Virus record (IMG/VR): IMGVR_UViG_3300029619_000018
Coordinates: 1 to 37,897 of that record
Direction: 5' to 3' (one strand)
Length of the DNA stretch: 37,897 bases
DNA from: a virus
Shown here: piece after piece, positions 1-37,897 of the stretch
Layout: each line of letters begins with the position of its first letter
Numbering within the stretch: the stretch's first letter is position 1
Notes under the pieces: generated by a model
Databases searched by the model: none
Told to the model about the DNA's origin: nothing
The model's input: only the letters and a program-made list of their open reading frames with translations
Program-made: the position numbers and the translations under genes

Positions 1-439
1 TAGCGCAGCCACCAACACCGGCAACTGGAGTGCAGCCACCAACACCGGCGACTGGAGCGCAGCCACCAACACCGGCAACTGGAGCGCAGCCACCAACACC
101 GGCAACTGGAGCGCAGCCACCAACACCGGCGACTGTAGCGCAGCCACCAACACCGGCGACTGGAGCGCAGCCACCAACACCGGCAACTGGAGTGCAGCCA
201 CCAACACCGGTAACCGTAGCGCAGCCACCGTTGATGGAAAGGAGTCTATTGCAATCGTCACCGGAGTTGATAGTAAGGCATCCGGTGCCATTGGATGCTG
301 GCTCGTCCTAACCGATAGGGGTGGCTGGAACGGTGATACTTTCCCAATTAAAGAGGTGCGAGCTGTAAAGGTAGATGGTGAGATTATAAAACCCGGGGTA
401 TTTTACAAACTGGAAAATGGGGAGGTCGTGGAAGCATGA
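1..439 (+). CDS. C-terminal part of the tandem 9-aa-repeat protein (continuation of 37239..37897); 5' partial in this window
   Basis: Frame 2 reads (SAATNTG[ND][WCR])x8, then SAATVDGKESIAIVTGVDSKASGAIGCWLVLTDRGGWNGDTFPIKEVRAVKVDGEIIKPGVFYKLENGEVVEA, and stops at TGA 437-439. The stop overlaps the next ATG (ATGA). Confidence 0.75.
   Translation, partial: SAATNTGNWSAATNTGDWSAATNTGNWSAATNTGNWSAATNTGDCSAATNTGDWSAATNTGNWSAATNTGNRSAATVDGKESIAIVTGVDSKASGAIGCWLVLTDRGGWNGDTFPIKEVRAVKVDGEIIKPGVFYKLENGEVVEA
2..217 (+). repeat. 27-bp coding tandem repeat, 8 units (AGC GCA GCC ACC AAC ACC GGC RAC TGG type)
   Basis: Direct reading. The units are near-identical apart from the last two codons (NW, DW, NW, NW, DC, DW, NW, NR) and AGC/AGT, GGC/GGT synonymous changes. 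Confidence 0.95.
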
Positions 440-10835: not shown

Positions 10836-10945
10836 GACGATGGCTCAAAAGACTGATCCTGTGGGCGTTATGGGACGACCAGACGGCGCAGGAGCAATAT
10901 GCAACCAAGATATTCAACGAGTGGCTTAACGGCCCGGAGGATTGA
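10829..10945 (+). CDS. Small hypothetical protein (38 aa)
   Basis: The ATG overlaps the end of terL, and the stop abuts the portal RBS. Sequence MVRRWLKRLILWALWDDQTAQEQYATKIFNEWLNGPED. Confidence 0.35.
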   Translation: MVRRWLKRLILWALWDDQTAQEQYATKIFNEWLNGPED

Positions 10946-10946
10946 T

Positions 10947-13567: not shown

Positions 13568-13582
13568 GGAGTGTATAAAACT

Positions 13583-17592: not shown

Positions 17593-20124
17593 ATGTTTGA
17601 AAAAATAAAAGCGTCCGATGGCAATGCTTATACCCCGGACGCTGTATTTACCGATAGCGATGGCAACAGGGTGGGTGTAATCGGACAGGAAACGACCCCC
17701 GGCCTGTCTGCCAGTGAGATGCAGTATTCCGTAGAGCAGGTCGTGCGTGAGGTAGTGATTCCCGCGTACAACAGCCTGGTGGACGCGCTGAATGCCTTGA
17801 CCGCTGCCGCCAACATGGGCGCAGAGGATATCAGCGGTGCGGCATCGACCGTACAGGAAGAGCTGGAAAAGCGGATCCTGACCGGCAATGTGAAGTACAT
17901 CCGCCTTAACGATGACAAGGTGCTGGAAACCAGCGAAGATGGCGTAACATGGGAAGCGACCGGCTCCTCCGGCCACATCATTGTCAAGCCGGACGGGACA
18001 GTAGCCCCGCAGCGCAGCCGCATGAAGTTTGCCAACGGAACTGTGACCGATGACGGCGAGCAGACCATCATCACCGGCCTGAAAGGCGATACCGGCCCGC
18101 AGGGCGAGAAAGGCGACACAGGCGAGCAGGGGCCGAAGGGTGACCAAGGCCTGACAGGCCCCGTTATTGTTCCCACCGTAGATGCAGACGGCGTCATGTC
18201 CTTTACCATACAGGATACGGCGATTGCACCGCAGGCCGTCAGTGTGAGAGGCCCGCAGGGCCCGCAGGGCGTACAGGGCCAGCAGGGTGCCCAGGGCACA
18301 AGAGGCCCGCAGGGTATTCAGGGCGTACAGGGTATCCAGGGCCCCAAGGGCGAAACAGGCGAACAGGGTCCTGCCGGTGCTACTGGTGCCACAGGCGCAA
18401 CCGGTCCCAAAGGTGATAAAGGCGATACTGGCCCCAAGGGTGATACCGGCGCAACCGGTGCCCGTGGTGCAACAGGCGCTACCGGCGCACAAGGCCCGGC
18501 TGGTCCCGCAGGCCCCAAGGGTGAACAGGGCGATACCGGAGCCACAGGCGCAACCGGGGCGACAGGTGCTACAGGTGCAGAAGGCCCTGCTGGCCCTCGT
18601 GGCTTAAAGGGCGAAAAGGGAGACAAAGGTGATACTGGTGCAACAGGCGCTACCGGCGCTACTGGTGCGCAGGGGCCTATGGGACCGCAAGGACCGACAG
18701 GCCCTGCCGGTAAAGATGGAACCAGCCTGTATATCGAGGACAGCTATCCTACACTGGCAGCGCTGAAAAACGCGATCCCCGCCGGGAACAACAAGATGTA
18801 CTATGTGCAGGAGGACGGCGAGTGCTACATCTGGAGCGAGACGGCCAATGACTGGGTAAGCGTTGGCGCTTTGCAAGGCCCCATCGGCCCTCAAGGCCCT
18901 CAAGGCGTACAGGGGCCACAAGGCGAGCAAGGCCCAGCTGGCGCTACCGGTGCTACTGGCGCTGCTGGAGAACAAGGCCCGCAGGGTGAGAAAGGCGACA
19001 AAGGGGACACTGGCGAGCAAGGCCCCACAGGCGCTACTGGTGCAACAGGCGCGACAGGCCCGCAAGGCCCAGCCGGTTCTCCCGGTGCTGACGGTGCAGC
19101 TGCTACTATTAAAATAGGTACAGTAACCTCCGGCGATGCTGCTTCCGTTACCAACAGCGGCACAACCTCTGCTGCGGTATTCGACTTTGTACTGCCCAAA
19201 GGCGATAAGGGCGAAAAAGGAGATACCGGTGCTACAGGTCCGCAGGGTGAGACCGGCGCAACCGGCCCGGCTGGTGCTACCGGCGCTACAGGCCCGCAAG
19301 GCGAACAGGGCGTTCAGGGGCCGCAGGGCGAAGTGGGTCCGGAGGGGCCGCAAGGTCCTGCCGGTGCAGCAGGAAAGGATGGCAAATCCGCCTACCAGAC
19401 TGCCGCAGAAGCAGGATACACCGGGACGGAAACCGCATTTAACGCGGCGCTGGCGGATGTGCCCGGCCATATCGCAAGCAAGGCCAACCCCCACGAAGTA
19501 ACCAAAACGCAAGTTGGCCTTAGCAATGTGGACAATGTGAAGCAGGCCCCCTATACCCATGTTTCCGATAAGGCTAACCCACATAGCGTGACCAAAGCCC
19601 AGGTCGGGCTTGGAAATGTAGATAACACCAGCGATGTCAATAAGCCTGTTTCCACTGCACAGCAGACAGCGATTAACGCCTGCAAGGTAAAGAAAGCGAG
19701 CGTTACCCTGACCGCTGCCGGGTGGACAGGAGCTGCAAGCCCCTATGCGCAGACCATAACCCTTTCCGGCATTACCGTAAACAGCAAGGTGGATATCCAG
19801 ATGGATGCAACCGTCCTTGGCGCTATCCTCGACAGCGGTACATCTGCCCTTTGGATTGAGAACAACAACGGTACCCTTACCGCCAAGGCAATGGGCGAAA
19901 AGCCCAATGCGGACATGGAGGTACAGGTGATGATAACAGAGATCATCAACGGTGGGGGCAGTATCTCCGGCAATGCCATCTATGCGCCATCCGGCGGCGG
20001 TGGCTTTGTAGCTTCCGCTACGGCACCGGATACCAAGCTGCTGTGGATCGATACCGCAAACGGCGGTATTATCAAATACCACAACGGCACTGCATGGGTA
20101 GCTGTTGGCGCGGCATTCAGTTAA
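17593..20124 (+). CDS. Collagen-like tail fibre protein
   Basis: Four blocks of G-X-Y repeats. Two copies of the fibre motif ANPH.VTK.QVGL.NVDN. Beta-rich C-terminal domain. Confidence 0.85.
18070..19383 (+). repeat. Collagen-type G-X-Y coding repeats in four blocks (about 18070-18165, 18247-18720, 18872-19090, 19198-19383)
   Basis: GGC/GGT recurs every third codon ([19 protein letters not shown] and similar). Block edges are approximate. Confidence 0.85.
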
Positions 20125-21301: not shown

Positions 21302-21583
21302 ATGGCATTGAAAGTAACAATCCCTGAGCAGGACTGCACCTGCGTGGAACGCCTGTGGTACGAGTACAACGCGGCGCTGGGTGTTCTGCGTTATCTGATG
21401 GCGCAGCCTGATGTACTGGAGGAAAACCTGCAGCTGTATGCCGATAGCTGTGAAGCAAAGAGCGTGGAGCTGGAGCTGGCCAAAAGAGAAGTGAGTGAGC
21501 GCTTTAAGCCCGACGGCGCAGTTATGAGCTACTCTTTTAACTTTGACGAGTGCGCCATTGAGTATCAGATGGAGGCCGTATGA
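21302..21583 (+). CDS. Small accessory protein, putative CXXX-repeat modification system partner
   Basis: 93-aa protein with an AAGGAGG RBS, ATGA-coupled to the radical-SAM gene. The size and position match the small partner I recall for CXXX-repeat maturase cassettes. Confidence 0.5.
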   Translation: MALKVTIPEQDCTCVERLWYEYNAALGVLRYLMAQPDVLEENLQLYADSCEAKSVELELAKREVSERFKPDGAVMSYSFNFDECAIEYQMEAV

Positions 21584-22896
21584 AGCGAAGCGAAATAAGC
21601 TATGCGGATTACCTTTGCACCTTGTACCCGGAGGAGAGCGCCAAAATGCTGCCGGAGGAATTTCTCTGCCGCGACATTACTTTTCAGGTGACCGATGACT
21701 GCCCGATGGCCTGCACTTATTGCTACCAGGGGCATAAAGGGCACCGGGTAATGTCAAAAGAAACGGCCAGAAAAGGGGTAGACCTCCTTTTCAAAATGTG
21801 GGAGGAAGATAAGGGGACTTTTATCAACCGTAAAACAAAGGCCATTGTTCTGGATATGATCGGTGGGGAACCTCTGATGGCTATTGATGTGATCGATGAT
21901 ATCTGCACCTACTTTGTGCGGCGCTGCCTGGAGCTGCAGCACCCGTGGATCTATACATGGAGGGTCAATATCACATCGAATGGTGCTTTGTACTTTGAAC
22001 CGAAAGTGCAGGAGTTCCTCCACAAGTTCCGGAATAATCTGAGCTTCGCTGTAACGCTGGACGGGCCGAAAGAGATCCATGATGCCTGCCGGGTCTATCA
22101 TGATGGGCGCGGTAACTTTGATGACGCCTACGCGGCAATGAAGCACTTTAACGCCCACTTCTACGAAGAATTGGGGACAAAAGTGACCATTGCCCCGGAG
22201 AACATCCACAATCTTAACCGCATCGTGGACTTCTTTATGGCCGAGGGCATGAAAACAATACACGCCAACTGTGTACATGAAGCCAAGTGGACACCGGAAC
22301 ACGCCAAGGTGCTGTACGATGAAATGAAGCAGATGGCTGATAAGCTGCTGAAAAACAACGACGGTACCACGGTCTCCCTGTTCTCGGAAGATAATTTCCA
22401 CCCGCTTCCGCCAGAAGAAAACGGGAACTGGTGCGGCGGTACCGGGGCCATGCTGGCGTTTGACCCCGATGGTATTGCCTACCCCTGCCTGCGGTATATG
22501 CCATCCTCTTTGGGCAACGATGTCCCGCCCATTATCGTCGGTACCGTCGATGGGGTATTTGAGCAGCCGGAGCACAAAGCAATTAAGGAATACCTTGACA
22601 GCATTACCCGTCGTTCGCAGTCTACGGATGAATGCTGGGAATGTCCGGTCGCTTCCGGCTGCGCATGGTGCTCCGCATGGAATTATCAGGAGACCGGCTC
22701 GGTCAACTGCCGCAGTACCAATATCTGTGTGATGCACAAGGCGAGAGCACTGGCCAATGTGTACTACTGGAACAAATGGTATAAGCAAAACAACATCAAT
22801 AAGAAATTCAAAATGCATCTACTCCGAGAGGAAGCAGAAAAAATAATCAGCCCGCAGGAGTATGATATGCTGCTGCGGCTGAGTGAGGAGGACTGA
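21580..22896 (+). CDS. Radical SAM / SPASM-domain peptide maturase
   Basis: CX3CX2C motif (DDCPMACTYCYQG). GGEPLM. SPASM-type C-terminal clusters WCGGTGAMLAFDPDGIAYPC and CWECPVASGCAWCSAWNY. Confidence 0.85.
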   Translation: MKRSEISYADYLCTLYPEESAKMLPEEFLCRDITFQVTDDCPMACTYCYQGHKGHRVMSKETARKGVDLLFKMWEEDKGTFINRKTKAIVLDMIGGEPLMAIDVIDDICTYFVRRCLELQHPWIYTWRVNITSNGALYFEPKVQEFLHKFRNNLSFAVTLDGPKEIHDACRVYHDGRGNFDDAYAAMKHFNAHFYEELGTKVTIAPENIHNLNRIVDFFMAEGMKTIHANCVHEAKWTPEHAKVLYDEMKQMADKLLKNNDGTTVSLFSEDNFHPLPPEENGNWCGGTGAMLAFDPDGIAYPCLRYMPSSLGNDVPPIIVGTVDGVFEQPEHKAIKEYLDSITRRSQSTDECWECPVASGCAWCSAWNYQETGSVNCRSTNICVMHKARALANVYYWNKWYKQNNINKKFKMHLLREEAEKIISPQEYDMLLRLSEED

Positions 22897-23157: not shown

Positions 23158-23484
23158 ATGAACGAATTTGTAACCTGGACAACTCTTGGAACCTATGCCG
23201 GCGCTGTGATGATGGTCACTATCATCACCCAGTTTTTGAAGCAGACCCCCCTTGCCAAGCTGAACGCACAGCTGCTGGCGTACATTGTGGCGGTGGCTAT
23301 CCTCATCGGCGCAGAAGCATTTAACGACTCTGCCGTGACGGTACAGGGCGTAATCCTGTGCCTGCTGAACGCCGTTATTGTGGCGCTGGCTGCCAACGGT
23401 ACATACGATGCCGCTACCACCAATATGATGAAAAAGCCTGTGGTGGCGGAATACGAGCACGAGGAGGTCGTGGAAGATGCCTAA
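23158..23484 (+). CDS. Holin
   Basis: 108-aa protein with about three hydrophobic segments and a charged C-terminus. Lies immediately upstream of the endolysin and overlaps it. Confidence 0.65.
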   Translation: MNEFVTWTTLGTYAGAVMMVTIITQFLKQTPLAKLNAQLLAYIVAVAILIGAEAFNDSAVTVQGVILCLLNAVIVALAANGTYDAATTNMMKKPVVAEYEHEEVVEDA

Positions 23485-24193
23485 AGTGTATCTTTCCCCG
23501 GAACGCAGACCAAAACCGCATGGGCCGTATTACGGCTTTCCCGGCGTGTATGAGCATGATGTGTGTGTGGAAATCGGCGCTTATTGCGCCGATGCCCTCA
23601 CCCGCTGCGGCTTTGAGGTAATGGTAGCTGACCCTGCCAAGACCATGCAGGAGCGTGTAGCGGAAAGCATAGTATGGGACAGTGACCTGCATATGCCCAT
23701 TCACACCAACGCCAGCACTGCCACCACAAAAGAGGGGACGGCGCAGGGGCCTACCATTCTCCGCTACGGCAAAGCCGGCGGCGTAAGCGACCGGGCCTGC
23801 CAGATGGTTTATCGCCGCCTGATGGAGATTTACCCCCGGAATACCCACCGGGGCGTGTACCAGAAAGACGAGTTTTATGAAATCGGCAGAACCCCGATGC
23901 TTTCCATCTATCCGGAGCTGGCTTTCCACGACAACGGACAGGACGCGATCTGGCTGGTGCAGAACAAGAAAGCCATAGGGGAAGCACTGTGCAAAGGCGT
24001 GTGCGACTGGTTTGGCGTGACCTACAAGGCAGAGGAAGAAAAGCCGCAGACAGACTATGAGCGGCTTCTTGCCGAGCTGGAGGAAGTAAAAGAAAAGTAC
24101 AGAGTAGAGCACGCATCTGCGCAGGCGCTGCGTGCCAGAATTTTAGCCGCCGTGGAACAGTATGACACGGCGGCATTTGATAAGGAGGGATAA
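23477..24193 (+). CDS. Endolysin, N-acetylmuramoyl-L-alanine amidase (Amidase_3-like)
   Basis: YLSPE...YEHDVC..IG..L..CGFEV...DLHMPIHTNA...YPELAFHDN pattern. The C-terminus is coiled-coil-like rather than an obvious wall-binding repeat. Confidence 0.75.
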   Translation: MPKVYLSPERRPKPHGPYYGFPGVYEHDVCVEIGAYCADALTRCGFEVMVADPAKTMQERVAESIVWDSDLHMPIHTNASTATTKEGTAQGPTILRYGKAGGVSDRACQMVYRRLMEIYPRNTHRGVYQKDEFYEIGRTPMLSIYPELAFHDNGQDAIWLVQNKKAIGEALCKGVCDWFGVTYKAEEEKPQTDYERLLAELEEVKEKYRVEHASAQALRARILAAVEQYDTAAFDKEG

Positions 24194-24194
24194 G

Positions 24195-24968
24195 ATGGCG
24201 CCGAAAAAGAATGTGACCCTTGTAAACGATGGCGGAAGCAGCAACACCATCAAAAACACCGGCACAGTCAAGCCGATAGGTTACGATGTGGCGAGGGCGG
24301 CCGCAGCAGCAGGCTCCGAAGTAAATAAGCCCGGCAGGGGAACGACTGACGCTATCATAAAAGGCGGGGCGCTTGCCGCAGCCAAAGGTCAGCTTGCCGG
24401 ACTTTCTCCCACTACCAGCGCGACGGTAACAGACACTACGGAACGAGATGCATATCTTGAAAGCCTGAAAGCGCAGCTGGATGCGCAGACCGCTGCCTAT
24501 GACCAGCTGCTTGCCTACAACCAGCAGATGTATGAGGCCCAGCAGAAACAGGCGGCCCAGCAGCGGGAGGACAATGCACGCAGGGCGTACATTGCCAAAG
24601 AGATGGCGCTAAAGAACCTCCCCGGGCAGCTGGCCCGTGAGGGCATTAATGGCGGCCTTGCGGAAAGCTCCTATGTCCGGCTGAACAACCGCTATAACAG
24701 CAGCCTTGCCGATGCGGATAACGCCTATTCCGATGCGGTGAATCAGGCATACCTTGACATGATTCAGGCGAACCGGGAGCCGCAGAGCGGAAAGATGAAT
24801 GCGCAGGCAAGCTATTCCGCCGGGCTGGCAAAGGCCCCGAAGCCAAAGACAAAAACCACCAAAAAGGACAACCCAAATTACAATGCCGCCTTGCAGGACT
24901 CCTACAACATGTTGCGCCGGGCCGGTTATTCTGATTCAATGGCGGCAAGACTTCTCGGACTTGAATAA
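24195..24968 (+). CDS. Gln/Ala-rich coiled-coil protein, possible internal virion protein
   Basis: AAGGAGGG RBS before ATG 24195. Lies immediately upstream of the giant polyvalent protein. Confidence 0.45.
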   Translation: MAPKKNVTLVNDGGSSNTIKNTGTVKPIGYDVARAAAAAGSEVNKPGRGTTDAIIKGGALAAAKGQLAGLSPTTSATVTDTTERDAYLESLKAQLDAQTAAYDQLLAYNQQMYEAQQKQAAQQREDNARRAYIAKEMALKNLPGQLAREGINGGLAESSYVRLNNRYNSSLADADNAYSDAVNQAYLDMIQANREPQSGKMNAQASYSAGLAKAPKPKTKTTKKDNPNYNAALQDSYNMLRRAGYSDSMAARLLGLE

Positions 24969-24979
24969 CAGGAGGAAAA

Positions 24980-27900
24980 ATGGATAGAAAAACGCTGGAA
25001 CAAAACTATCAAAAATCTTTCGGTGCATCGCCTGCCGCGGAGCTTGAGCAGAACTACCAGCGGAGCGGCATTGACTCTCTTGTTCAATCTGTGAAGAAAG
25101 CTACCCAATATAATCCCTCTGCCCCCAGCACGCAGCCTACACAGGCTGCGCCTGCTGGGGCTTCTTCTCGTAAGCAGAGCGATGCCATGAAGGAGCAGCT
25201 GGATACGATTAAGAAACAGAGGGACGACGCGGCAATTAAGGCCGGGGCCTATATGCGAGCTGGGAATATGCAGCAGCAGGCCAAGGAGCAGCAGAAGATT
25301 GCCAACAAGGCTGCCTTTGAGTACGAGAACGCCTATACCCAGTGGAAGAACCAGCGAAATGCGGAAGCGGTAGAGGACTACAACCCGGACGAGAATAAAT
25401 TCAAGGCAGGCGATGCTGCCCTTGCTGGTGTGCAGAATGCATTCCAAAGCATGAGGCAGTATGCCGCTGCAGCATCTTCGTATCTTTCCGGTAATCCGGA
25501 AGCGCAGGCATGGGAAGCCAAGCGGCTGATGGAAAGCGGCGTAAGCGGTGCCGAAGCCGTAAAGCGGGCCGGGCTTGCCGATAAGAGAGAAATCCCCATC
25601 ACAGACTATAAGACACAGGCAGAACTGCGCCACGAAAAGAATGTAGCCAGCGTTGGTGCTGTTGAGGGCGGAGCGCTGCAGCTGGTCAATACGATCTCGA
25701 ACATGGTGCCGTCCCTTGTTGCAAACGCGGTCCTCCCCGGCTCCGGTTTGCCCGTGATGGCTGCATCCGCCGCGGGCAATAAATATGCAGATGCCTATGA
25801 GAAGTACGGGAATACGGATACAGCATTCGTACTCGGCTCCGCTGCCGGTGGCGCTTCCATGCTTACCGAACAGTTTGGCGGTTTGTATGGCTCGCTGGGC
25901 AAGTCTGCCGCCGGGCAGGCCGTGGCCAAGAAACTGATGGCGGAAGCCCCCGGCCTGTATAACCTCGCCAATTCCGTGGGTGGCAAGTGGCTGCGGGACG
26001 CTCTCTCCGAAGGCATTGAGGAGGGTGCAGAGGATGTTATCAACTACGCCACTGAAAAGGCCCTCACCGGCGACAGTGACGAGATGGACAACTTCGGCTA
26101 TGATATCCTGCTGGGTGCTCTTGCAGGCGGTGTATTGGGCGGCGGCAACGCTGCGATGCGTTCCGTCACCTACAGCCGTGTAGGCAAGGCACTGAATGCT
26201 TCCCCTGCTGCCGTAGCGCAGCAGGTGCAGGAGGGCATGGAGAAAGGCGCAGGCACCGCACCTGCCATTTATGCGGCGGAGGTGCAGAAGAACCCCAGCA
26301 GCCAAATGGTGGGCAGACTGTATGAAGCAAACCTCACCTATGATGCCGAGAGCGGCCTTTCCAAAATCCAGAACGATATTACCCAGGTCTCCATCAATGA
26401 GATCAAGGCGATGGTCTCCAAAGCGGATGCGCTGGCGCAGGCAGCCCAAAAGCTGAATGTGGAAGCTACTCCGCAAGCCGTAGCAACAGCTATTACCGAT
26501 GCCCAGCGCACACAATCCATTAAAACAGCCGAGGACAGCGTAGGGCAGGCTTTTGCTCCCACAGTTGATAATCCTGTCAACGCAGGAGAGAAAGCCTACA
26601 ACAGCGCCCTTGCCGGTGTAGCAGCTAACCAAGGCGTAGCTGCTCGCATCAATAACGACCCTGCCGCAAGACAGGCATTCTCCCAGTTGACCGGCGTACA
26701 GTTCAGCGGAAACACAGCACAGGATATTGCCGCTATCGAAGTGGCTACGCAGAACATTGCGAAGTCCGGTAAACAGGCGATCTCCCAGGCGGAATATGCC
26801 CAGCGTGTCGCTGCCGCAGGAGAACAGGCTGCTGCCCAGTTCGATGCCGATATGCAGGCGCAGGCGGAGCAGATGCAGCGGGAATCCGATGAAAGATGGC
26901 TTTCCGTTGAGCAAAACACCATTACCGATGTAGACGGAAAGCGCCGCATCAAGGAGATCACCAATACCGATGTGCGCGGCAATACCGAGATCGGCTATAA
27001 GAAAGCTGAAATTCTCGGCAGTAAAAAGAAAGCTGTTGCCGAGGTGAACAATGCAGCGAAATACCTTGGCAAGACTATCGTGTGGTTTGAGGGTGCGGTG
27101 CAGGTCAATGGGCAGTACCGACTGACCAATGGCTATCGCGCACCGGATGGCACCATTTATGTCAACATCAATTCCCGTGATCCGCTGATGGTTACTTTCG
27201 GGCATGAGATGTTTCACGACCTTGTAGCTGATGGCAAGTATTCCGGGATGATTGATACGCTGGTAGAGAACCCAGACTATGCCGATATGGTAAAGGGCAT
27301 GATGAATGCCAAAACCGAACTGTACGAGCGCAATGGAATTGAGCTTGACCCGGATGCAGCTGCGGAGGAAGTCGCTGCCGATATCAGCGGTGATCTTTTG
27401 GGCAGCCGGGATATGCTGGAGTACATCGGCGCAAGAAATACGGAAGCCGCCACCGGCATTAAAGGTTTCTTGAACCGTATCCTCAAAAAGCTAAAAGGAA
27501 AGCCCTCTGCACAGGAAGCCTATAACAGGCTGTCCGAATCGCAGAAGGCTTTGCTTGATGGGATGGAGGGGAGAACGGAGGTAGAAGAAGCGGGGAAGAT
27601 ATCTTATTCGCTGATGCGGGAAGCGGTGGAGAAAAACAACCGCCCATTTGCGGAACAGTTTGCCGACTACAAAGCTGGCAAAATGAAACCGACGGAGCTG
27701 TTTGCCCTTGGCAATACATCGCAGTATCTGCAGGCTGCCGGAATAGGGAATGAGCCCATTGTTATGGCGCAATCTGTTGTGGCAAAGGCGCAGAGAAAAG
27801 CAAAGGTTGATACCCATGGGCACAACCTTTCCGATAATGTTTTGCTGAAGCTTCCGGAAATGCTGGACAAGCCGGCGCTTCTGTTGAAATCGGACACTGT

Positions 27901-30900
27901 CCCCAATGCAGCAGTTATTGTTACCTCTACAGCGGATTCCGACGGGAACCCTGTTGTTGTGGCGCTCCACTTGAGCCGGAGCGAGGGCTTTGATATTGTA
28001 ACAAGAGTGGCAAGTCTGTATGGAAAAGAAAACAGCAGAGACTTCCTTGCGGAGCAAATGCTTCGGGGAAATCTGCTTGGTTACAGCAAAAAAGAAGCCA
28101 ACCGACTGCTTCATCGAGATGGGCTCCAATTGCCCAGACGGAACACAGCGGTTGACTTCGACACCATTAGTGTAGCACAAGACACTGATGCTGTCAATAA
28201 CTATTCTATGCAGAATAGCGCAGAAGATGCAAGCGGGAAACATTCCCTTATGGATATCCCGGCAATGGACAGTACCGGCAGGGAGCTTTCTGCCGAGCAG
28301 CGGGAGTATTTTAAGGACAGTAAGGTGAGGGACGAGGACGGAAACCTGCTTGTAGTGTATCACGGAACGGATGCCGACTTTACCGTTTTTGACGCTTCCA
28401 AAGGCAGGGCAAACATGGATATTCAGGGAATGTTTTTCAGCCCTTGGGAGCTTGATGCGCAGGGCTACGGCAGTAATGTAAGCGCCTATTACCTTGACAT
28501 TAAAAACCCCGCGAGCGAAGCCGTTGGGTATAAAGCGCTCAACAGGTTCAAGGGGCAAAACAATGCCGGAGTAAAGGCAAGAGAGTACCTGCAGAACCTT
28601 GGCTACGATGGCGTAAACAACGGAAACGAGGAGTATATTGCCTTTGAACCGAGCCAGATCAAGCGCATCGACAACCTCACCCCAACCAAAAGCAAGGACA
28701 TCCGCTACTCCCTCATGGAAGATGCCCAGTACATGGCCGACATCGACAAAGCGGTATCTGAAGCTACGCAGAAAGCAAACGATGAGCTGAAGGCTGCACA
28801 AGCCGAGGTGAAGAACATCCGTCAACAGCTTGCTGACTATCGCCAGCAGGCAACTGCGGAAGCGAAGATGAATGACCGCTGGCGTGATGCAGAGACGAAA
28901 CTCCTCACCGAAATAGCAGCGGCTAAAGAGCGAGAGAAGGCAGCAAAGGCTCGTTCCGAGTTCATGCAGAAGTACGATTCCCTTTCCAAACAGTACCGCG
29001 CTGACCTGCGGGCTAACAACCAGCAGGCACAGGAAAAGTATAACGAAAAACTGACCGAAGCCAAGGACGAATTCAACCGGCGGAGGACGCAGGACCGCAT
29101 TGACCGAGTGGTGCGGGAGGATCGGGCAAAGAGCAAAGCCCGATTGAGGACGGCGGAACAGAAATCCACCACTACGGAAGATGTTGCCAAGGTTCTGACC
29201 GAAATGCCGAAGAAGGACAAGGAAACCTTTAAGGCGAAAGCCGCCAAAGACTGGCGCACCTTTAAGCGCCAGTGGATCAATACCAAGGATGAGCTGGAGC
29301 GCTTCGGGAACGAAGTCGGCGACAGCAGAATCATGTATGCAGCGAACAATGTCGGGCAGGCATCTGCGGCGGCGCAGTATTCCATTGGCGGCGCCGGGCA
29401 GTATGACCTTAACGGCAAGAAGATCGGCGATAAGAACCTCATGCAGGTATTTGAACCGGCGAAAAAGGCTGGCTTGACCGATGAGTTTTACACCTACCTG
29501 CTGCACGAGCACAATGTAGACCGCATGAGTGTACGCGAAAACGCGCAGCGGCAGCTTGCAGAACTTCGGGCGAAACTGAACAGGGAAGTCAACGGCTTTT
29601 CGGAAATGACAGATGAGAACATCGCTACAGCCGCAGGCAAGGATACTACCCTTACAAAAGCCTACACCGAGGCACAGATTGCCGCCGCCAAGCAATATAA
29701 GCAGTTCCAGGCGTGGGCAGAAAAGCAGTTTGACAAGCCTGTATTCGGCAGCAGCGTGACCGCAGACGATAGCCGTGCCGCAGCAGCTGACCTGCTGGAT
29801 GCACACCCTGAATTTGAGAAGTGGGCAAAGGATGTGTATGCCTACCTTGACGGATTGATGGAGGTGCGAAAGCAGGGCGGACTCGTGAGCACTGATATGG
29901 CACAGTACATGAAGGAACTGTATCCGCACTATGTTCCCACCTACCGCGATATGCCCAGCACCTCCGGCGGCTACTCCAACCCTAACAGCGTTGCGGTGAA
30001 CAGCACCATAAAGTCCGCAAAAGGTGGCAACCAGGATATCATGCCGCTGATCGACAGTATTGCCAGGCAGACCTTGCAGACCTTCTCCGCAGCAAAAAAG
30101 AACATTCTGGGCAATATTCTGTATGAAGATGCAATGGATACTACCCGTGATATCTCGGAATACATTCAGAGTGTTACAGAGGAAGGCGATCTCGTTGACC
30201 TTGATGCGGATTCCGCAGAGAACCTCAAGAACACGCTGCGCATTTGGGTGGATGGCAAACCGGTTACTCTGCACATGAGTGAAGCAATGGCCGATGGGTT
30301 TAGACCCATTGAGCAATCCAATTCCTTTGGAATGAAAGCATTGCGCTCCATCAATAGCACATTCAAAAAGCTGGTTACCCAGTGGAACCCGGTGTTCATT
30401 GTTCGCAACTTCATCCGCGATGCGCAGTCCGCTTTGTATTTCACCCATTACAGCAACGCCACATTCATTAAGAATTATGGTAAGGCTGTAAAAGAAATCG
30501 CGACAAACGGGAAGTACTGGCAGCTGTACCAGGCAATGGGCGGTAAGGGAACAACCTACTACGACCCAAAGACTGGCCTTGCGGATCGCCGCCATTTCAA
30601 AAATGCTACGGCAGATAAACTCCTTGGCGGTTTGAATAAGGCTATTGATATACTGTCCTTCGCCAATGAGGCAGTCGAACAGTACCCTCGTCTTGCAGAG
30701 TTCATCAGCACAATGGAGGCAACCGGAGATGTGCAGCAGGCGCTTTACAATGCGGCTGACATTACCACCAACTTTGGCCGCGGCGGCTTTGCAGCCCGCA
30801 AACTGAATGCATCTCTGGTGCCGTTCTTCAACCCCGGAATGCAGGGCCTTTCCAAGAACATTCGCAATGTCATTGACCGGCGCGGCTGGAAAGAGATTGG

Positions 30901-32119
30901 ACAGCTGGTCTCCCGGTTGCTTATCAATGGTGTTGCACCCGGCATCATTATGGGCCTGCTGTACGATGGGCTGAAAGAGGATGATGACTACAAGGAACTT
31001 TCCGACTACATTAAGGATAGTAACATCCTCATCAAGATCGGCGACAATAAGTTCATTAAAGTCCCGATGGGTCGTGAGCCTTCCGTTATTACGGCATTCA
31101 CCAACCGTATGTGGCGCTGGTTGAAAGGCGAACCCGCAAGCAGTGCATTTGCTGGTTATCCGTCTTTCGCCATTGAGCAGATTGCGCCGAACAATCCGCT
31201 GACCAATAACATCTTCGCTGGTATTACTGCAATGAGCACCAATAAGACTTGGTACGGCGGGGACATCGTTTCCAGCTACATGGAGGAAAAGCCGGACTAT
31301 CTGCAGTACGATGAAAGCACCGATGCGTTTTCTATCTGGCTGGGCGAGATCACCCGCCACGGGAAGAATGGCATCGAGGGGCTTTCGCCGAAGAAAGTCA
31401 ATTACTTGATTGACCAGTATTCCGGCTTTATCGGTGACTGGGTGCTCCCGGCGCTTTCCAAAAAGGCGGATGTTCCTGCGGTGGTAAAGGCATTTGTTGT
31501 AGATAGCGTCCGGCAGAACCGGCTGGGCAGCGACTTCTACGATGCACTGGACGAAGCCAAACAGGTAAAGGATACCGAGATGGCAACTGCAGCTGATGAT
31601 GCGACCTATTCCTACCTGTATAAGCAGAGCAAGGCTGCATCCGAAATCACGAAGCAGCTCAAGGAAATCTACAACAGCGGCGAAAAGACCCGCAAGGAGA
31701 AGATGAGCGAGGCTCGTGACCTGCTGGAATTACGAAACGAGATTTATAGAAAAGCCCTTTTGACCGTCGGCACCTACGAGGAAACCGCAAAGAGCATCGG
31801 AAGCGCAGACAGCGATGTGGTGAAGCGCGAAGCAAACCGCAAGGCGTTCGGCGCGGAATATGCGCTAAAGAACTACAACAAGGATGTCGGAGAGAAAGCT
31901 GCAGAATATGTGGCGCATGGAGTTACCTATGACCAGTACTATGCCGCATACTTTGCTGCCCGCGGCATCACCGGCGACAAGGACGAGAACGGTAAGACGA
32001 TTACCAACTCTGCCAGCCGGAAAAAGAAAGATGCCATCGACAAGGCTGTGCCAAACGCAACCACAAAGCAAAAGCACCTTTTGTACGAAGCGATTGGCGT
32101 TTCAGAAAAAGTGTGGTAA
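24980..32119 (+). CDS. Giant polyvalent (multi-domain, probably virion-packaged/injected) protein, 2379 aa
   Basis: Gly/Ala-rich hydrophobic N-terminal region. HExxH zincin motif (FGHEMFHDL, nt 27203-27217). PARP-like ART motifs at about nt 28330-28680. Long coiled coil (about 28700-29280). Roughly 950-aa C-terminal region of unknown type. Confidence 0.75.
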   Translation: MDRKTLEQNYQKSFGASPAAELEQNYQRSGIDSLVQSVKKATQYNPSAPSTQPTQAAPAGASSRKQSDAMKEQLDTIKKQRDDAAIKAGAYMRAGNMQQQAKEQQKIANKAAFEYENAYTQWKNQRNAEAVEDYNPDENKFKAGDAALAGVQNAFQSMRQYAAAASSYLSGNPEAQAWEAKRLMESGVSGAEAVKRAGLADKREIPITDYKTQAELRHEKNVASVGAVEGGALQLVNTISNMVPSLVANAVLPGSGLPVMAASAAGNKYADAYEKYGNTDTAFVLGSAAGGASMLTEQFGGLYGSLGKSAAGQAVAKKLMAEAPGLYNLANSVGGKWLRDALSEGIEEGAEDVINYATEKALTGDSDEMDNFGYDILLGALAGGVLGGGNAAMRSVTYSRVGKALNASPAAVAQQVQEGMEKGAGTAPAIYAAEVQKNPSSQMVGRLYEANLTYDAESGLSKIQNDITQVSINEIKAMVSKADALAQAAQKLNVEATPQAVATAITDAQRTQSIKTAEDSVGQAFAPTVDNPVNAGEKAYNSALAGVAANQGVAARINNDPAARQAFSQLTGVQFSGNTAQDIAAIEVATQNIAKSGKQAISQAEYAQRVAAAGEQAAAQFDADMQAQAEQMQRESDERWLSVEQNTITDVDGKRRIKEITNTDVRGNTEIGYKKAEILGSKKKAVAEVNNAAKYLGKTIVWFEGAVQVNGQYRLTNGYRAPDGTIYVNINSRDPLMVTFGHEMFHDLVADGKYSGMIDTLVENPDYADMVKGMMNAKTELYERNGIELDPDAAAEEVAADISGDLLGSRDMLEYIGARNTEAATGIKGFLNRILKKLKGKPSAQEAYNRLSESQKALLDGMEGRTEVEEAGKISYSLMREAVEKNNRPFAEQFADYKAGKMKPTELFALGNTSQYLQAAGIGNEPIVMAQSVVAKAQRKAKVDTHGHNLSDNVLLKLPEMLDKPALLLKSDTVPNAAVIVTSTADSDGNPVVVALHLSRSEGFDIVTRVASLYGKENSRDFLAEQMLRGNLLGYSKKEANRLLHRDGLQLPRRNTAVDFDTISVAQDTDAVNNYSMQNSAEDASGKHSLMDIPAMDSTGRELSAEQREYFKDSKVRDEDGNLLVVYHGTDADFTVFDASKGRANMDIQGMFFSPWELDAQGYGSNVSAYYLDIKNPASEAVGYKALNRFKGQNNAGVKAREYLQNLGYDGVNNGNEEYIAFEPSQIKRIDNLTPTKSKDIRYSLMEDAQYMADIDKAVSEATQKANDELKAAQAEVKNIRQQLADYRQQATAEAKMNDRWRDAETKLLTEIAAAKEREKAAKARSEFMQKYDSLSKQYRADLRANNQQAQEKYNEKLTEAKDEFNRRRTQDRIDRVVREDRAKSKARLRTAEQKSTTTEDVAKVLTEMPKKDKETFKAKAAKDWRTFKRQWINTKDELERFGNEVGDSRIMYAANNVGQASAAAQYSIGGAGQYDLNGKKIGDKNLMQVFEPAKKAGLTDEFYTYLLHEHNVDRMSVRENAQRQLAELRAKLNREVNGFSEMTDENIATAAGKDTTLTKAYTEAQIAAAKQYKQFQAWAEKQFDKPVFGSSVTADDSRAAAADLLDAHPEFEKWAKDVYAYLDGLMEVRKQGGLVSTDMAQYMKELYPHYVPTYRDMPSTSGGYSNPNSVAVNSTIKSAKGGNQDIMPLIDSIARQTLQTFSAAKKNILGNILYEDAMDTTRDISEYIQSVTEEGDLVDLDADSAENLKNTLRIWVDGKPVTLHMSEAMADGFRPIEQSNSFGMKALRSINSTFKKLVTQWNPVFIVRNFIRDAQSALYFTHYSNATFIKNYGKAVKEIATNGKYWQLYQAMGGKGTTYYDPKTGLADRRHFKNATADKLLGGLNKAIDILSFANEAVEQYPRLAEFISTMEATGDVQQALYNAADITTNFGRGGFAARKLNASLVPFFNPGMQGLSKNIRNVIDRRGWKEIGQLVSRLLINGVAPGIIMGLLYDGLKEDDDYKELSDYIKDSNILIKIGDNKFIKVPMGREPSVITAFTNRMWRWLKGEPASSAFAGYPSFAIEQIAPNNPLTNNIFAGITAMSTNKTWYGGDIVSSYMEEKPDYLQYDESTDAFSIWLGEITRHGKNGIEGLSPKKVNYLIDQYSGFIGDWVLPALSKKADVPAVVKAFVVDSVRQNRLGSDFYDALDEAKQVKDTEMATAADDATYSYLYKQSKAASEITKQLKEIYNSGEKTRKEKMSEARDLLELRNEIYRKALLTVGTYEETAKSIGSADSDVVKREANRKAFGAEYALKNYNKDVGEKAAEYVAHGVTYDQYYAAYFAARGITGDKDENGKTITNSASRKKKDAIDKAVPNATTKQKHLLYEAIGVSEKVW

Positions 32120-32121
32120 AA

Positions 32122-33795
32122 TTATTGCAGTTTTACAATGATTCCAAAAGCGCGCTGGAAAAAAAGTATGGAGTTCGCTTTTGGTTCATTACCCTGCACC
32201 AAACCGCCATAAGGCGAACACTTGGAATCGTCAGATTCAACACAGGAGCCCCCCTGCCCGGGGGCTTCTTGTGTTATCTGGCGATTTTCTCTATCTTCGG
32301 CTTCCTGCATGGCCTTGTCTACATCATTAACGGTGATCTTGCTGCCGTCTCCATCAAAGTTGTAGCAAATAACAACCCGATCATCGTAGACAAATACAGA
32401 GTTGATGAAGGTATCTACTATGCGCTGCATATAATTTATATCCGTCCGGTCGCCCTCGGGAACCTTTGAGAGGAAGTACATGATCTTTTTTTCGTCAAAT
32501 TTCTCCTGCACCAGCTCCTGCTCTGCAATGGCAAACTTGATGTTCTCCAGTTCTTCCTCTCGATCTCTTACTCTCGCCGCAATGGTGGGGGATGCAGCGC
32601 CTGCTTCGAGTGCGGCGACAAGATTACCGATTGCTTTCTCGCACTCTCTCCTGCGCGATTTTAACCCGTCCAGGATCGCTGTATCTTTCTGCCTTTGCTG
32701 CCACGCACAAAGGTCTGCGGCGATTGACTGGATATTTTCTTTGTGCAGCGCTACATCGAGGGTTGTGTCAATAACTAGCCGCTCTAAGAAGTCTTTCCTT
32801 ACCGGCTTCTTCTGGCAGGCTTTGCTTTTATCCCGGCTGTTCTTGTGATGGACGCAACCATAGTAATAATGCTTTGCCCCGGTCTTGCTTGTTCCGCTCT
32901 CTCCTGCCATCGGGCCGCCGCATTGGCCGCAGAAGCACTTTGTGGTAAGGATGAACGGTTCGGCAGCTTTTGCTCTTGCCGGTGCGTGTTTATTCTTTCC
33001 CAATTTAATCTGCACCCTTTCGTATAAGTCTTTCGGGACGATCTGTGGCATTCCGCCCTCTACTCTGATATCGGCGTAGATATATACCCCGGTATACCTT
33101 TCGTTACGCAGGATGGAATACATGGACGAGCGTGTGAGGGGCTTTCCCTTGTGGGACCGGATTCCCTTTTTGTTCAAGTCGTCCATGATGTGCGTTAGCA
33201 ATTCTCCGCCATCGTAGCGCTGGAAAATCTCTAAAACGGCCGCTGCGTTGATCGGGTCGGTATAAAAGCGCTTGTCCTCACCGGCCTTGTAACCAAATGG
33301 GATTGCCCCACTGGTGATCTGGCACTTCCGGGCGCTCTCCAGCAGGCCGCGGCGTACATTCTCGGCATTCGTTGCGGAATAAAACTCTGCCATGCCCATC
33401 AGCATTGCCTTTTGCATTCCGCCTAATGGCCCATCCGCTACCGGCTCGGTGCAGGAAATCAGCGACACACCATTGCGCTTTATCCGCATTTCATTCAGCA
33501 CCATATCCTCCATGTTGCGGCCGAAACGGTCGCTTTTCCACACGAGGACGGCATCAAACAGGCCCTTTTCGCTGTCCTTTATCATCTGCCGGAACGCTTC
33601 CCGGTCATCGTTGGTGCCGGTCTTGTGCTTATCGGCATATGTCTGAATAATCCGGTAATCGTGCTGTTCCGCATATTCCTGGCACACCCGGAGCTGCCCC
33701 TCTATGGATTGATCTGTTTGTCTGCTGCCGGGGGAGTACCGCGCATAGATGCATACGGTGCGCACCGGCCGCAGGTCATATCTTTTTTTCGCCAT
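32122..33795 (-). CDS. int: Large serine recombinase (integrase)
   Basis: N-terminal resolvase domain (CIYARYSPGSRQTDQSIEGQ...WKSDRFGRN). Recombinase domain. Zinc ribbon CFCGQCGGPM...YYYGC. C-terminal coiled coil. Confidence 0.9.
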   Translation of the reverse strand: MAKKRYDLRPVRTVCIYARYSPGSRQTDQSIEGQLRVCQEYAEQHDYRIIQTYADKHKTGTNDDREAFRQMIKDSEKGLFDAVLVWKSDRFGRNMEDMVLNEMRIKRNGVSLISCTEPVADGPLGGMQKAMLMGMAEFYSATNAENVRRGLLESARKCQITSGAIPFGYKAGEDKRFYTDPINAAAVLEIFQRYDGGELLTHIMDDLNKKGIRSHKGKPLTRSSMYSILRNERYTGVYIYADIRVEGGMPQIVPKDLYERVQIKLGKNKHAPARAKAAEPFILTTKCFCGQCGGPMAGESGTSKTGAKHYYYGCVHHKNSRDKSKACQKKPVRKDFLERLVIDTTLDVALHKENIQSIAADLCAWQQRQKDTAILDGLKSRRRECEKAIGNLVAALEAGAASPTIAARVRDREEELENIKFAIAEQELVQEKFDEKKIMYFLSKVPEGDRTDINYMQRIVDTFINSVFVYDDRVVICYNFDGDGSKITVNDVDKAMQEAEDRENRQITQEAPGQGGSCVESDDSKCSPYGGLVQGNEPKANSILFFQRAFGIIVKLQ

Positions 33796-37242: not shown

Positions 37243-37897
37243 TCGTCTACAAGGGAACCGACAAGGACATGAAATGCCGAGGCTTCCAATTCGATCTTGG
37301 CAAAGAATATGTGGAGGAGGAAGCGAAACTGTGCGACAAAGGTTTCCATGGATGCGAGTACCCGCTGGATGTGTTCACCCATTACGCCCCGGCCGACAGT
37401 CGGTTTTTCGTGGCTGACCTCGATGGCGTGACGGACGAAGAAGAAGAAGGTGACAGCAAGCGAGCCGGAACGAAAATAAAGCTCCGGGCGGAAATCGGTA
37501 TCGCTGGTATTGTAAAGGCTGCGGTTGAGTACATAAAAGAAAAAGCAGAGAGCAGCAAAAATCAGACCGGCAACTGGAGCGCAGCCACCAACACCGGCGA
37601 CTATAGCGCAGCCACCAACACCGGTAACCGTAGCGCAGCCACCAACACCGGCTACTGTAGCGCAGCCACCAACACCGGCGACTATAGCGCAGCCACCAAC
37701 ACCGGCAACTGGAGTGCAGCCACCAACACCGGCGACTGGAGCGCAGCCACCAACACCGGCAACTGGAGCGCAGCCACCAACACCGGTAACCGTAGCGCAG
37801 CCACCAACACCGGCTACTGTAGCGCAGCCACCAACACCGGCAACTGGAGTGCAGCCACCAACACCGGCGACTGGAGCGCAGCCACCAACACCGGCAA
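37239..37897 (+). CDS. N-terminal part of the tandem 9-aa-repeat protein (3' partial; continues at 1..439)
   Basis: GTG 37239 follows AAGGGGGGGG and overlaps the previous stop (GTGA). Reads VIVYKGTDKDMKCRGFQFDLGKEYVEEEAKLCDKGFHGCEYPLDVF, an N-terminal domain I recall from prophage proteins (DUF7666-like, unverified). It then enters SAATNTGxx repeats and remains open to the window end. Confidence 0.7.
   Translation, partial: MIVYKGTDKDMKCRGFQFDLGKEYVEEEAKLCDKGFHGCEYPLDVFTHYAPADSRFFVADLDGVTDEEEEGDSKRAGTKIKLRAEIGIAGIVKAAVEYIKEKAESSKNQTGNWSAATNTGDYSAATNTGNRSAATNTGYCSAATNTGDYSAATNTGNWSAATNTGDWSAATNTGNWSAATNTGNRSAATNTGYCSAATNTGNWSAATNTGDWSAATNTG
37578..37897 (+). repeat. 27-bp coding tandem repeat, 11 full units plus a 23-nt partial unit
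   Basis: Direct reading. The variable di-residues run DY, NR, YC, DY, NW, DW, NW, NR, YC, NW, DW, N-. Confidence 0.95.

Follow-up and report, generated by a model that had tools for sequence, protein, structure and literature searches.

We analysed the DNA of the IMG/VR virus record IMGVR_UViG_3300029619_000018 (positions 1 to 37,897; this whole stretch of 37,897 nucleotides (nt) is called the window) and concentrated on one giant gene at 24980..32119 of its plus strand, which encodes a protein of 2379 amino acids (aa; 261 kDa). The product is a phage-type polyvalent protein, since ART-PolyVal, MuF_C and LPD38 domains are found in it above the Pfam gathering scores and the gene is a phage gene in a late operon. 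Judged from its relatives, the giant protein is probably packaged into the capsid of a temperate podovirus and ejected from it at infection. Packaging and injection appear indirectly but well supported, through homology of a C-terminal part that we call the chassis to two proteins found in virions, gp69 of phage JC1 and gp47 of phage phi24B. An earlier inspection of the letters without database searches (the sequence-only reading) had proposed a polyvalent protein replacing a tape measure. The polyvalent-protein concept fits the domains and the operon context that we find; the replacement of a tape measure does not stand, for reasons given with the phage lineage below. All coordinates of the giant protein and its parts refer to the plus strand.

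The giant gene and its product

The open reading frame (ORF) takes up 7140 of the 37,897 nt, or 18.8% of the window, in agreement with the extent and the share of about 19% read off beforehand, and the identical ORF was obtained from independent gene calls on other metagenomic contigs. It closes the late operon as its final member. A strong Shine-Dalgarno sequence, AGGAGG (24970..24975), is located 4 nt 5' of its ATG, and the stop codon of the preceding gene, g268, lies at 24966-24968, 11 nt short of the same ATG. The giant gene is translationally linked to an operon that encodes terminase, portal, capsid, a 635-aa virion protein, a collagen-like fibre, holin and endolysin ahead of it. Its place after the lysis cassette had been singled out in the sequence-only reading, and the gene does follow holin and endolysin; this position is a local rearrangement, the homologous gene of the Bacillus megaterium podophage Page being found just before the lysis genes.

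There is no cysteine among the 2379 residues, compared to a mean of 2.2% in the other 34 ORFs and 1.0% in the structural ORFs (naive binomial P ~2e-23 for the giant protein), and homologues that share the chassis have between 0 and 2 cysteines each. A cysteine-free composition fits, but does not prove, an unfolded passage through a narrow channel and a life outside the cytoplasm.

Relatives of the giant protein are numerous and come from an abundant human-gut prophage family, with 731 protein clusters (at 90% identity) matching at E<=1e-5. Searches with the whole protein against NCBIfam and, using phmmer, against the sequences in the PDB gave no match at E<=1. Neither did megablast of the giant gene and the structural module find a match in 50,697 phage records, suggesting that there is no close cultured relative.

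A C-terminal chassis shared with virion proteins

The most widely conserved part of the giant protein is the chassis, a stretch of ~700 aa with an LPD38 core (aa 1570-2264; 29687..31771). It lies within the ~950-aa C-terminal region that the sequence-only reading had set down as of unknown type, a description that can be withdrawn: Pfam places LPD38 (PF18857) at aa 2001-2163 (30980-31468; E 2.5e-36) and phrog_14770 covers aa 1553-2255. The motif RNxxRD (aa 1809-1814; 30404-30421) is invariant, as is the pattern FGRGG...N...F.N...QG at aa ~1932-1956. The most hydrophobic helix of the whole protein (aa 1973-1998; 30896-30973) sits just upstream of LPD38, and the same holds for the most hydrophobic helix of each chassis protein.

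By tblastn, the chassis alone matches 271 phage records. The matches include gp69 of the Burkholderia phage JC1 (E 2e-18), a Bcep22-like phage, gp75 of Bcep22 itself (2e-16), and 933W and other Stx phages (3e-9), together with phages of Ralstonia, Vibrio, Thalassomonas and Shewanella. Those phages that we recognised among the 271 are short-tailed. A second set of relatives comes from the region resembling gp20 of Page, for which 60 homologues were found, mostly LPD38-only proteins of 1000-1180 aa such as are found in related Bacillota prophages; 56 of the 60 align with the window protein, most of them within aa ~1570-2264. In six further sequences (L001, L009, L015, L016, L021 and L022) no more than 10 kb separates the chassis from the same capsid or 635-aa virion protein; the chassis hence travels with the podovirus structural module.

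Two of these homologues point to packaging. Mass spectrometry of JC1 virions purified on CsCl placed gp69 second among the proteins, with 51 unique peptides (PMC9144972). In phi24B, gp47 is abundant in virions by proteomics and yet invisible in the cryo-EM map, and the authors propose that it is encapsidated and then ejected as a trans-periplasmic conduit (bioRxiv 10.64898/2026.04.10.717836).

Structure comparisons, which the sequence-only reading had put forward as a check, gave a divided result. The AlphaFold2 (AF2) model of aa 1440-2379, built from a 58-sequence alignment, has a mean predicted local distance difference test (pLDDT) score of 53, and Foldseek found nothing in the PDB below E 0.6 for it. 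Against BFVD, the same model matches C-terminal chunks of many viral giants (E 1e-39 to 1e-14, TM score ~0.4), among them the second half of the polyvalent protein of Escherichia phage PTXU04 (E 5e-17) and giants named for a RelA/SpoT, type I methylase or lytic transglycosylase domain. Matches to giants with such different names suggest a constant C-terminal chassis joined to variable N-terminal cargo. With mean pLDDT values of 53 here and 44 for the N-terminal model, we make no fold-based claim for the chassis or for the N-terminal module A described below.

The last residues of the protein form a separate tail module (aa 2310-2379; 31907..32116) with the pattern ...GDKDENGKTI.NS...K..AID......T.QK..L....G.S.KVW up to the stop. 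It has no Pfam family. A search with it returned 49 matches, 31 of which end no more than 15 aa from the C-terminus of other giant polyvalent proteins, including some that lack LPD38, and it is the best-predicted part of the C-terminal AF2 model (pLDDT 80-92). We consider it a candidate encapsidation or docking tag. The module (~65 aa) is sometimes present in two tandem copies; it ends on a terminal Trp and has a DxDxNG loop reminiscent of the calcium loops of EF-hands and dockerins.

A single variable ART cassette between fixed linkers

Two effector domains in the middle of the protein are assigned with confidence by Pfam, and both had been anticipated in the sequence-only reading, as a MuF-C-like segment at 27640-28110 and a PARP-like ADP-ribosyltransferase (ART) domain. 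The MuF_C module (aa 885-1059; 27632..28156) is covered over its full length by phrog_616, and PF18819 matches aa 940-1040 of it with E 1e-17; the score of 64.6 bits is far above the gathering cut-off (27.6), and positions 2-101 of the 103 in the profile are aligned. It has a His-Gly-His motif at aa 946-948 with Thr/Ser residues present downstream, and MuF-C has been classed as a PBECR RNase fold (Iyer et al., PMC5512222). In the ART cassette (aa 1093-1238; 28256..28693), aa 1118-1235 match ART-PolyVal (PF18760) at E 1e-20, with 75.4 bits where 31.2 are required and with positions 1-138 of the 140-position profile aligned. ART-PolyVal is described as an H-Y-D ART (Iyer et al., PMC5512222), whereas the window protein has H1128, F1152 at the Tyr position and E1223 at the Asp position. 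Sister cassettes show Y or F and D, E or S at the latter two positions, in our own cassette alignment rather than one fitted to Pfam.

The ART cassette is the sole hypervariable segment of the protein. Among 119 relatives with 84-100% overall identity, conservation in successive stretches of 40 aa is 84-100% everywhere except at aa 1121-1240, where it falls to 46-53%, and insertions concentrate at aa 1176-1234. The relatives carry differing versions of ART-PolyVal, with one or two confirmed domains (and a third, partial match in relative P0074) or an added LPD3 cassette. It is notable that the ART module is exchanged at a high rate between near-identical phages. The family amounts to an unusually clean natural experiment: in a backbone of 84-100% conservation, one ART cassette set between fixed linkers has been exchanged, doubled or supplemented with other modules. 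A lone variable cassette in an otherwise conserved backbone suggests that the ART is the part under host pressure.

The linkers themselves are short. The tripeptide SLM occurs exactly three times in the giant protein (aa 877, 1089 and 1244), each time at a module boundary: in GKISYSLMR (aa 872-880; 27593..27619) before the MuF_C module, in SGKHSLMD (aa 1085-1092; 28232..28255) before the ART cassette and in KDIRYSLME (aa 1239-1247; 28694..28720) after it. In the relatives all cassettes are flanked by [YHF]SL[MI] linkers, so that N cassettes come with N+1 motifs. The codons differ between the three SLM copies of the window, which argues that the peptide rather than the DNA is conserved; on the same ground we dropped the idea that the junctions are recombination repeats at the DNA level. 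We also dropped [YH]SLM as a general feature of giants that have a zincin domain, the motif being confined to the close family at >=45% identity. The [YH]SLM linker is possibly a site of self-cleavage. No prohead protease is evident between the portal and capsid genes, which makes the zincin-like domain in cis the natural candidate for a linker protease.

Beyond the third linker follows a charged helical spacer (aa 1248-1409; 28721..29206). The sequence-only reading had described a coiled coil of ~190 aa here, of which the long helical character stands and the coiled coil is much reduced. The longest stretch without Pro or Gly in the protein is aa 1236-1409 (174 aa), and 42% of the residues at aa 1250-1440 are charged, but strong heptad periodicity is seen only at ~aa 1247-1300. 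With heptads limited to the first ~60 residues, the E/R/K-rich remainder may be more like a charged single helix.

The N-terminal half

The protein begins with a Gln/Ala-rich region (aa 1-229; 24980..25666), in which LEQNYQ is repeated at aa 6 and aa 22, followed by module A (aa ~230-490; 25667..26449), a conserved Gly/Ala-rich and moderately hydrophobic module with the motifs NMxPS..., MxASAAGNxY and SEGxEEG. The sequence-only reading had noted a Gly/Ala-rich hydrophobic segment near aa 230-400. Its composition is as described (27-32% Gly plus Ala across aa 201-400); its hydrophobicity is only moderate, with Kyte-Doolittle maxima over 19 aa of 1.24-1.36 at aa 242-265 and 375-393. As these maxima are under the usual thresholds, we dropped true transmembrane helices as an explanation of module A.

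No Pfam family covers module A, and it recurs near the N-terminus of many phage giant proteins of 1.5-4 kaa. When 1.84 billion cluster representatives were searched by HMMER with aa 1-880, 187 proteins came up. Their matches fall on modules A and B (the latter described in the next paragraph), with most of the matching stretches in aa 230-490. Most of the 187 are giants of 1.5-4 kaa, and 108 of them carry module B according to a hidden Markov model of that family. Fourteen relatives that were scanned carry MuF_C, ART-PolyVal, PBECR3/5, LPD23 or LPD3, and are classical phage polyvalent proteins. The LPD38 core was present in only 8 of 155 relatives of aa 1-880. A remote homology between the LPD38 core and the cores of those giants that have modules A and B and lack LPD38 was rejected, the hhalign probability being 10%. 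In the AF2 model of aa 200-890 (mean pLDDT 44), module A is made of helices, mostly at pLDDT <50 with only aa ~400-450 at 59-82, and Foldseek found no match to this model in the PDB. An attempt at a deeper N-terminal alignment from a profile of distant homologues yielded 6 proteins only.

Module B (aa ~680-850; 27017..27529) is a zincin-like domain with the HExxH motif HEMFH at aa 742-746 (H742, E743 and H746) and a predicted third metal ligand at E797. Across 11 homologues that share 22-30% identity, no change is seen in the motif, in E797 (51 residues downstream) or in an NG pair upstream. In the AF2 model the module has a helix, three strands, the helix with HExxH and further helices, one of which carries E797 (pLDDT 56-74). 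This topology would be as expected of a gluzincin, and we call module B zincin-like by motif and topology only. In one homologue of module B, Peptidase_M78 was found at E 0.0099, under the cut-off.

Genome, phage lineage and host

The annotation of the genome comes from PHROG profile scans of the window ORFs. The plus strand encodes the large terminase (9492-10835), portal (10899-12650), major capsid protein (13571-14512), the 635-aa virion protein (15682-17589), a collagen-like tail fibre of 843 aa (17593-20124), holin (23158-23484) and endolysin (23477-24193), and Erf, NinB and a replication initiator are products of early genes. On the minus strand, convergent with the giant gene, lies the gene of a large serine recombinase of 557 aa (32122-33795).

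Three structural proteins match those of Page: the capsid protein at 45% identity, the portal at 38% and the 635-aa virion protein at 30%. The exact giant protein is present in human-gut metagenomes; a copy of the giant gene at 94% identity is found in an Angelakisella metagenome-assembled genome, copies at 34-38% in Oscillospiraceae and Vescimonas genomes, and a close relative, as a prophage copy, in a bacterial contig of 457 kb that has uvrA and uvrB a few kb away. Taken together, the Page matches, the Angelakisella and Oscillospiraceae copies and the prophage in a bacterial contig indicate that the genome is that of a temperate short-tailed Page-like phage or prophage of gut Oscillospirales (Angelakisella/Oscillospiraceae).

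Among the window ORFs scanned against PHROGs and NCBIfam there was no match for a tail tube, sheath, chaperone or tape measure, so that the sequence-only reading was right about the missing tail genes. In addition, profile searches did not identify the giant protein as a conventional tape measure or tail protein, its matches being to families such as ART-PolyVal and MuF_C. Where that reading went astray was in the word "replacing". As the capsid, portal and 635-aa protein are those of Pagevirus-type podoviruses, a lineage that never had or needed a tape measure, nothing has been replaced, and the proper analogy is to the ejection or pilot proteins of podoviruses.

The gene directly upstream, g268 (24162..24968, plus strand), overlaps the end of the endolysin gene and encodes an Ala/Gln-rich protein of 268 aa with no Cys and no Trp, for which the PHROG scans gave no match. 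The Vescimonas prophage L004 has a homologue immediately 5' of its giant gene, and in L016 another lies ~4.3 kb 5' of the core match. Two roles are conceivable for the g268 protein: that of a further internal or ejection protein beside the giant one, or that of its chaperone.

Several other features of the genome were observed. A late-operon gene for a radical-SAM protein (21580-22896; phrog_1802, E 5e-54) lies past the fibre genes and ahead of the lysis cassette, and is kept in the relatives L028 and L029. The fibre gene (17593-20124) has long Gly-X-Y repeats, seen as repeat families of 9 and 27 nt in the DNA at 18091-19359. Among the early genes is a PAPS-reductase-like gene (3409-4299; phrog_424, E 2e-42); the same type of gene is reported in JC1 and in prophages of Clostridium clostridioforme LM41, both of which have giant polyvalent ORFs. 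Tandem repeats of 27 nt at 1-337 and 37469-37886, with copies 63-100% identical, show that the window starts and stops within one array, which indicates a circular or permuted assembly cut inside an array of ~25-30 units. The array is located just 5' of the Erf, NinB and replication-initiator genes, and could represent origin iterons or an ORF (30..311) of 9-aa repeats.

Two contigs with an identical giant gene (L028 17680-19100 and L029 10140-11385) are 100% identical to the window up to 32201, divergent over 32201-32324 and 88% identical up to 32856, after which homology is lost. In the 457-kb contig, the bacterial genes for RadC, UvrA and UvrB lie past the point where homology is lost, suggesting that the prophage ends inside the 557-aa serine recombinase ORF of the window. 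Either the recombinase gene contains attP, and only the circular form would have an intact copy of it, or recombinase modules differ between these phages. A terminator-like hairpin (32244-32269; 10-bp stem with 7 G-C pairs) is found 125 nt past the stop of the giant gene. It sits in the 3' end of the convergent recombinase ORF, in the segment that differs between the otherwise identical contigs.

A packaged and ejected carrier of effectors: proposal and alternatives

We propose the following course of events, in which the packaging of this particular protein, the ejection route, the bridging of the envelope, the catalytic activities and self-cleavage are inferred. Late in infection a few copies of the giant protein would be packed into the capsid, with the LPD38 chassis (aa ~1570-2264) and the ~65-aa C-terminal tail likely to direct or tolerate encapsidation. 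In the next infection the cysteine-free and largely alpha-helical chain would be threaded through the portal and the short-tail channel, ahead of the DNA or with it. The hydrophobic helix of the chassis, the Gly/Ala-rich N-terminal module and the ~175-aa charged spacer may help to bridge the cell envelope, and the middle part would bring the effectors, namely a zincin-like metallopeptidase, a predicted MuF_C/PBECR RNase and an H-F-E variant of ART-PolyVal. Finally, the K-x-x-[YH]-S-L-M linkers may be cut by the zincin in cis and the cassettes freed. We regard this last step, self-processing at the linkers, as a tentative suggestion that is rather unlikely to be correct. Somewhat less likely again is the joint version in which every part has its role: a self-processing polyprotein whose zincin cuts the linkers, whose chassis and N-terminal hydrophobic module stay in the envelope as a DNA conduit, whose MuF_C and ART domains are released, and whose tail is a general signal for encapsidation or portal docking.

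A number of observations weigh against this proposal or parts of it. Packaging is deduced from homologues at 21-26% identity. No sequence match (E<=1) to T7 gp14-16, P22 gp7/16/20 or other PDB entries was found, and no fold match (E<=0.001) using a model of low confidence; with both AF2 models poor, arguments from structure are weak. Membrane insertion is questionable in that the hydrophobic segments are borderline for transmembrane helices (Kyte-Doolittle 1.2-1.7). The H-F-E residues of the ART could mean an inactive enzyme or one of altered specificity. The HExxH domain fails every profile test run: module B has no match in Pfam at E<=1, its family profile searched against PDB sequences returned noise and sub-threshold matches local to HExxH (thermolysin and WLM protease at E ~1), and no fold match to a known zincin family was found by Foldseek. 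The zincin named in the sequence-only reading is retained for its motif and predicted topology and lacks a match in Pfam, PDB sequences or folds. As regards self-cleavage, [YH]SLM is restricted to the close family and could be a structural linker or a recombination scar. Lastly, the N4 virion RNA polymerase (vRNAP), which also has a metallopeptidase domain, is packaged unprocessed (Iyer et al., PMC5512222).

An improbable alternative to packaging is that the giant protein acts as a late cytoplasmic multi-effector, in host shut-off, in a block to superinfection or in counter-defence, with LPD38 just another domain. The gene does occupy the typical place of an accessory gene or moron, as the last of its operon, beyond the lysis genes and beside a recombinase; a similar ~8-kb terminal ORF in LM41 is treated as an accessory gene (PMC11318856), and for the giant protein itself packaging is deduced from homologues. 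Yet homologues with the same chassis have been found in virions by mass spectrometry, and one, PTXU04 gp25, is essential. The chassis accompanies podovirus capsid and virion genes across distant hosts, the Page homologue is inside the structural module before the lysis genes, and total avoidance of cysteine would be unexplained for a purely cytoplasmic enzyme. Slightly less credible still is an external tail component, such as a needle, plug, nozzle extension or very long fibre. Tail needles and plugs of podoviruses frequently form trimeric coiled coils, which would suit the long helical spacer and a gene downstream of the tail and fibre genes. Against such a role, the phi24B homologue is abundant and nonetheless absent from a well-resolved reconstruction of the tail and needle, beta-helix, fibre or receptor-binding-like domains are missing from the predicted structure, an ART and an RNase-fold domain need the cytoplasm with its NAD+ and RNA, and the genome already has a collagen-like fibre and the 635-aa virion protein. 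The least plausible of all, and one we give hardly any credence, is a divergent tape measure of a long-tailed phage. The likeness in size, Gly/Ala-rich hydrophobic segment and long helices is superficial: no tape-measure family is matched in Pfam, PHROGs or NCBIfam, the scans of the window ORFs found no tail tube, sheath, tail-assembly chaperones or distal tail proteins, and the capsid, portal and virion genes match podoviruses.

A further alternative concerns the mechanism only and leaves packaging and ejection in place. Here the zincin is itself an effector, directed at the peptide cross-links of the cell wall or at a host defence protein, and the [YH]SLM linkers are inert. We hold this to be doubtful, if the least doubtful of the alternatives. 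The authors of the phi24B study suggest that the gp47 metallopeptidase degrades peptidoglycan (bioRxiv 10.64898/2026.04.10.717836), and the role of wall degradation is vacant in the window protein since it has no lysozyme or transglycosylase module while JC1 gp69 has one. Iyer et al. likewise list an "effector against host proteins" among the roles of such domains, and report the unprocessed packaging of N4 vRNAP (PMC5512222). On the other hand, a linker peptide that is conserved despite differing codons and occurs once per cassette boundary is hard to understand if it is inert, and gluzincin-type HExxH...E domains of polyvalent proteins have been argued to be autoproteolytic, as in P1 DdrB (PMC5512222). 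The evidence on the role of the zincin is not decisive, and self-processing and effector roles are not mutually exclusive.

Giant polyvalent proteins make up one fifth of many podovirus genomes. The value of the present case is a clean population-level view of a single hypervariable ART cassette, a cysteine-free composition and a shared C-terminal tail, all of them leads rather than established facts; the linkers and the tail give concrete leads on how effectors are packaged and released. If the self-processing polyprotein were true, it would amount to a testable grammar of address tag, chassis and cleavable cassettes for the loading and unloading of interchangeable effectors.

Comparison with known systems

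The closest phage lineage is that of Page, and the last 660 residues of Page gp20 (1679 aa) align with aa 1634-2264 of the window protein. In Page, the gp20 gene is the final one of the structural module. In contrast to the window protein, gp20 has LPD38 only and no recognisable effector domains, and it stops where the window protein runs on for a further 115 aa that include the C-terminal tail. The giant gene adjoins the lysis cassette in both phages, being before the lysis genes in Page and after them in the window.

Giants of the 933W/phi24B and Bcep22/JC1 phages have a homologous C-terminal chassis of ~700 aa with LPD38 near the C-terminus, as does the window protein, and like the PTXU04 giant each is the product of a single ORF that closes the structural module and fills ~20% of a podovirus genome. 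Identity between the window protein and the 933W/phi24B and Bcep22/JC1 giants is only 21-26%, and the hosts differ, being proteobacteria for the 933W- and Bcep22-type phages and a gut anaerobe of Gram-positive lineage for the window phage. The cargo differs too. JC1 gp69 (4515 aa) has transglycosylase, methylase, helicase and LPD3 domains besides LPD38 at aa 4195-4401 (PMC9144972), and phi24B gp47 (2811 aa) has LPD5, LPD1, LPD38 and MuF-C (bioRxiv 10.64898/2026.04.10.717836). Only MuF-C of these cargo domains is common to phi24B gp47 and the window protein, which has module A, the zincin-like domain, MuF_C and the ART where JC1 and Bcep22 have the lytic transglycosylase, methylase and helicase of their DarB-like proteins and phi24B has LPD5 and LPD1. 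Pfam found neither a DarB-type N6-adenine methylase nor an SF2 helicase in the window protein, and the chassis is all that it has in common with the "DarB-like" proteins of JC1 and Bcep22. PTXU04 gp25 (2198 aa) was designated a "Fit" gene that is needed for infection, and its knock-down by CRISPRi-ART strongly lowers the plating efficiency (PMC11879866).

In function, the proposed role is the same as that of T7 gp14/15/16, P22 gp7/16/20 and N4 vRNAP, which are packaged, expelled via the tail and aid the DNA across the envelope. One polypeptide of the window would take the place of the three ejection proteins of T7 or P22. N4 vRNAP, too, is a polyvalent protein of giant size that is packaged and has a metallopeptidase domain, whereas the window protein has no RNA polymerase module. 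T4 Alt offers a parallel for the ART: it travels in the capsid and, once injected, modifies host proteins as infection begins (PMC5512222), as proposed for the ART of the window. Alt is a separate myovirus protein of ~70 kDa, and the window ART is a swappable ART-PolyVal cassette in a 261-kDa chassis protein.

The architecture as a whole follows the phage-type polyvalent proteins of Iyer et al. (2017), in which a metallopeptidase, PBECR/MuF-C, ART and LPD domains are combined beside virion genes. That study defined the domain families and suggested that zincin domains may process polyvalent proteins (PMC5512222); the logic shared with the window protein is that effectors are delivered with the DNA and possibly released by the metallopeptidase. 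In a comparison by Pfam only, the window protein differs from that set in an HExxH domain that Pfam does not match and in its module A, [YH]SLM linkers and tail module, which have no Pfam family. The polyvalent concept, the LPD38 chassis family and the presence of such proteins in virions of JC1, Bcep22 and phi24B were already known, and our analysis bears out an established concept and does not reveal a new one. Gut Clostridia had already yielded a near-identical observation, in C. clostridioforme LM41, where ORFs of ~8 kb at the 3' ends of two prophages make up ~20% of each (PMC11318856).

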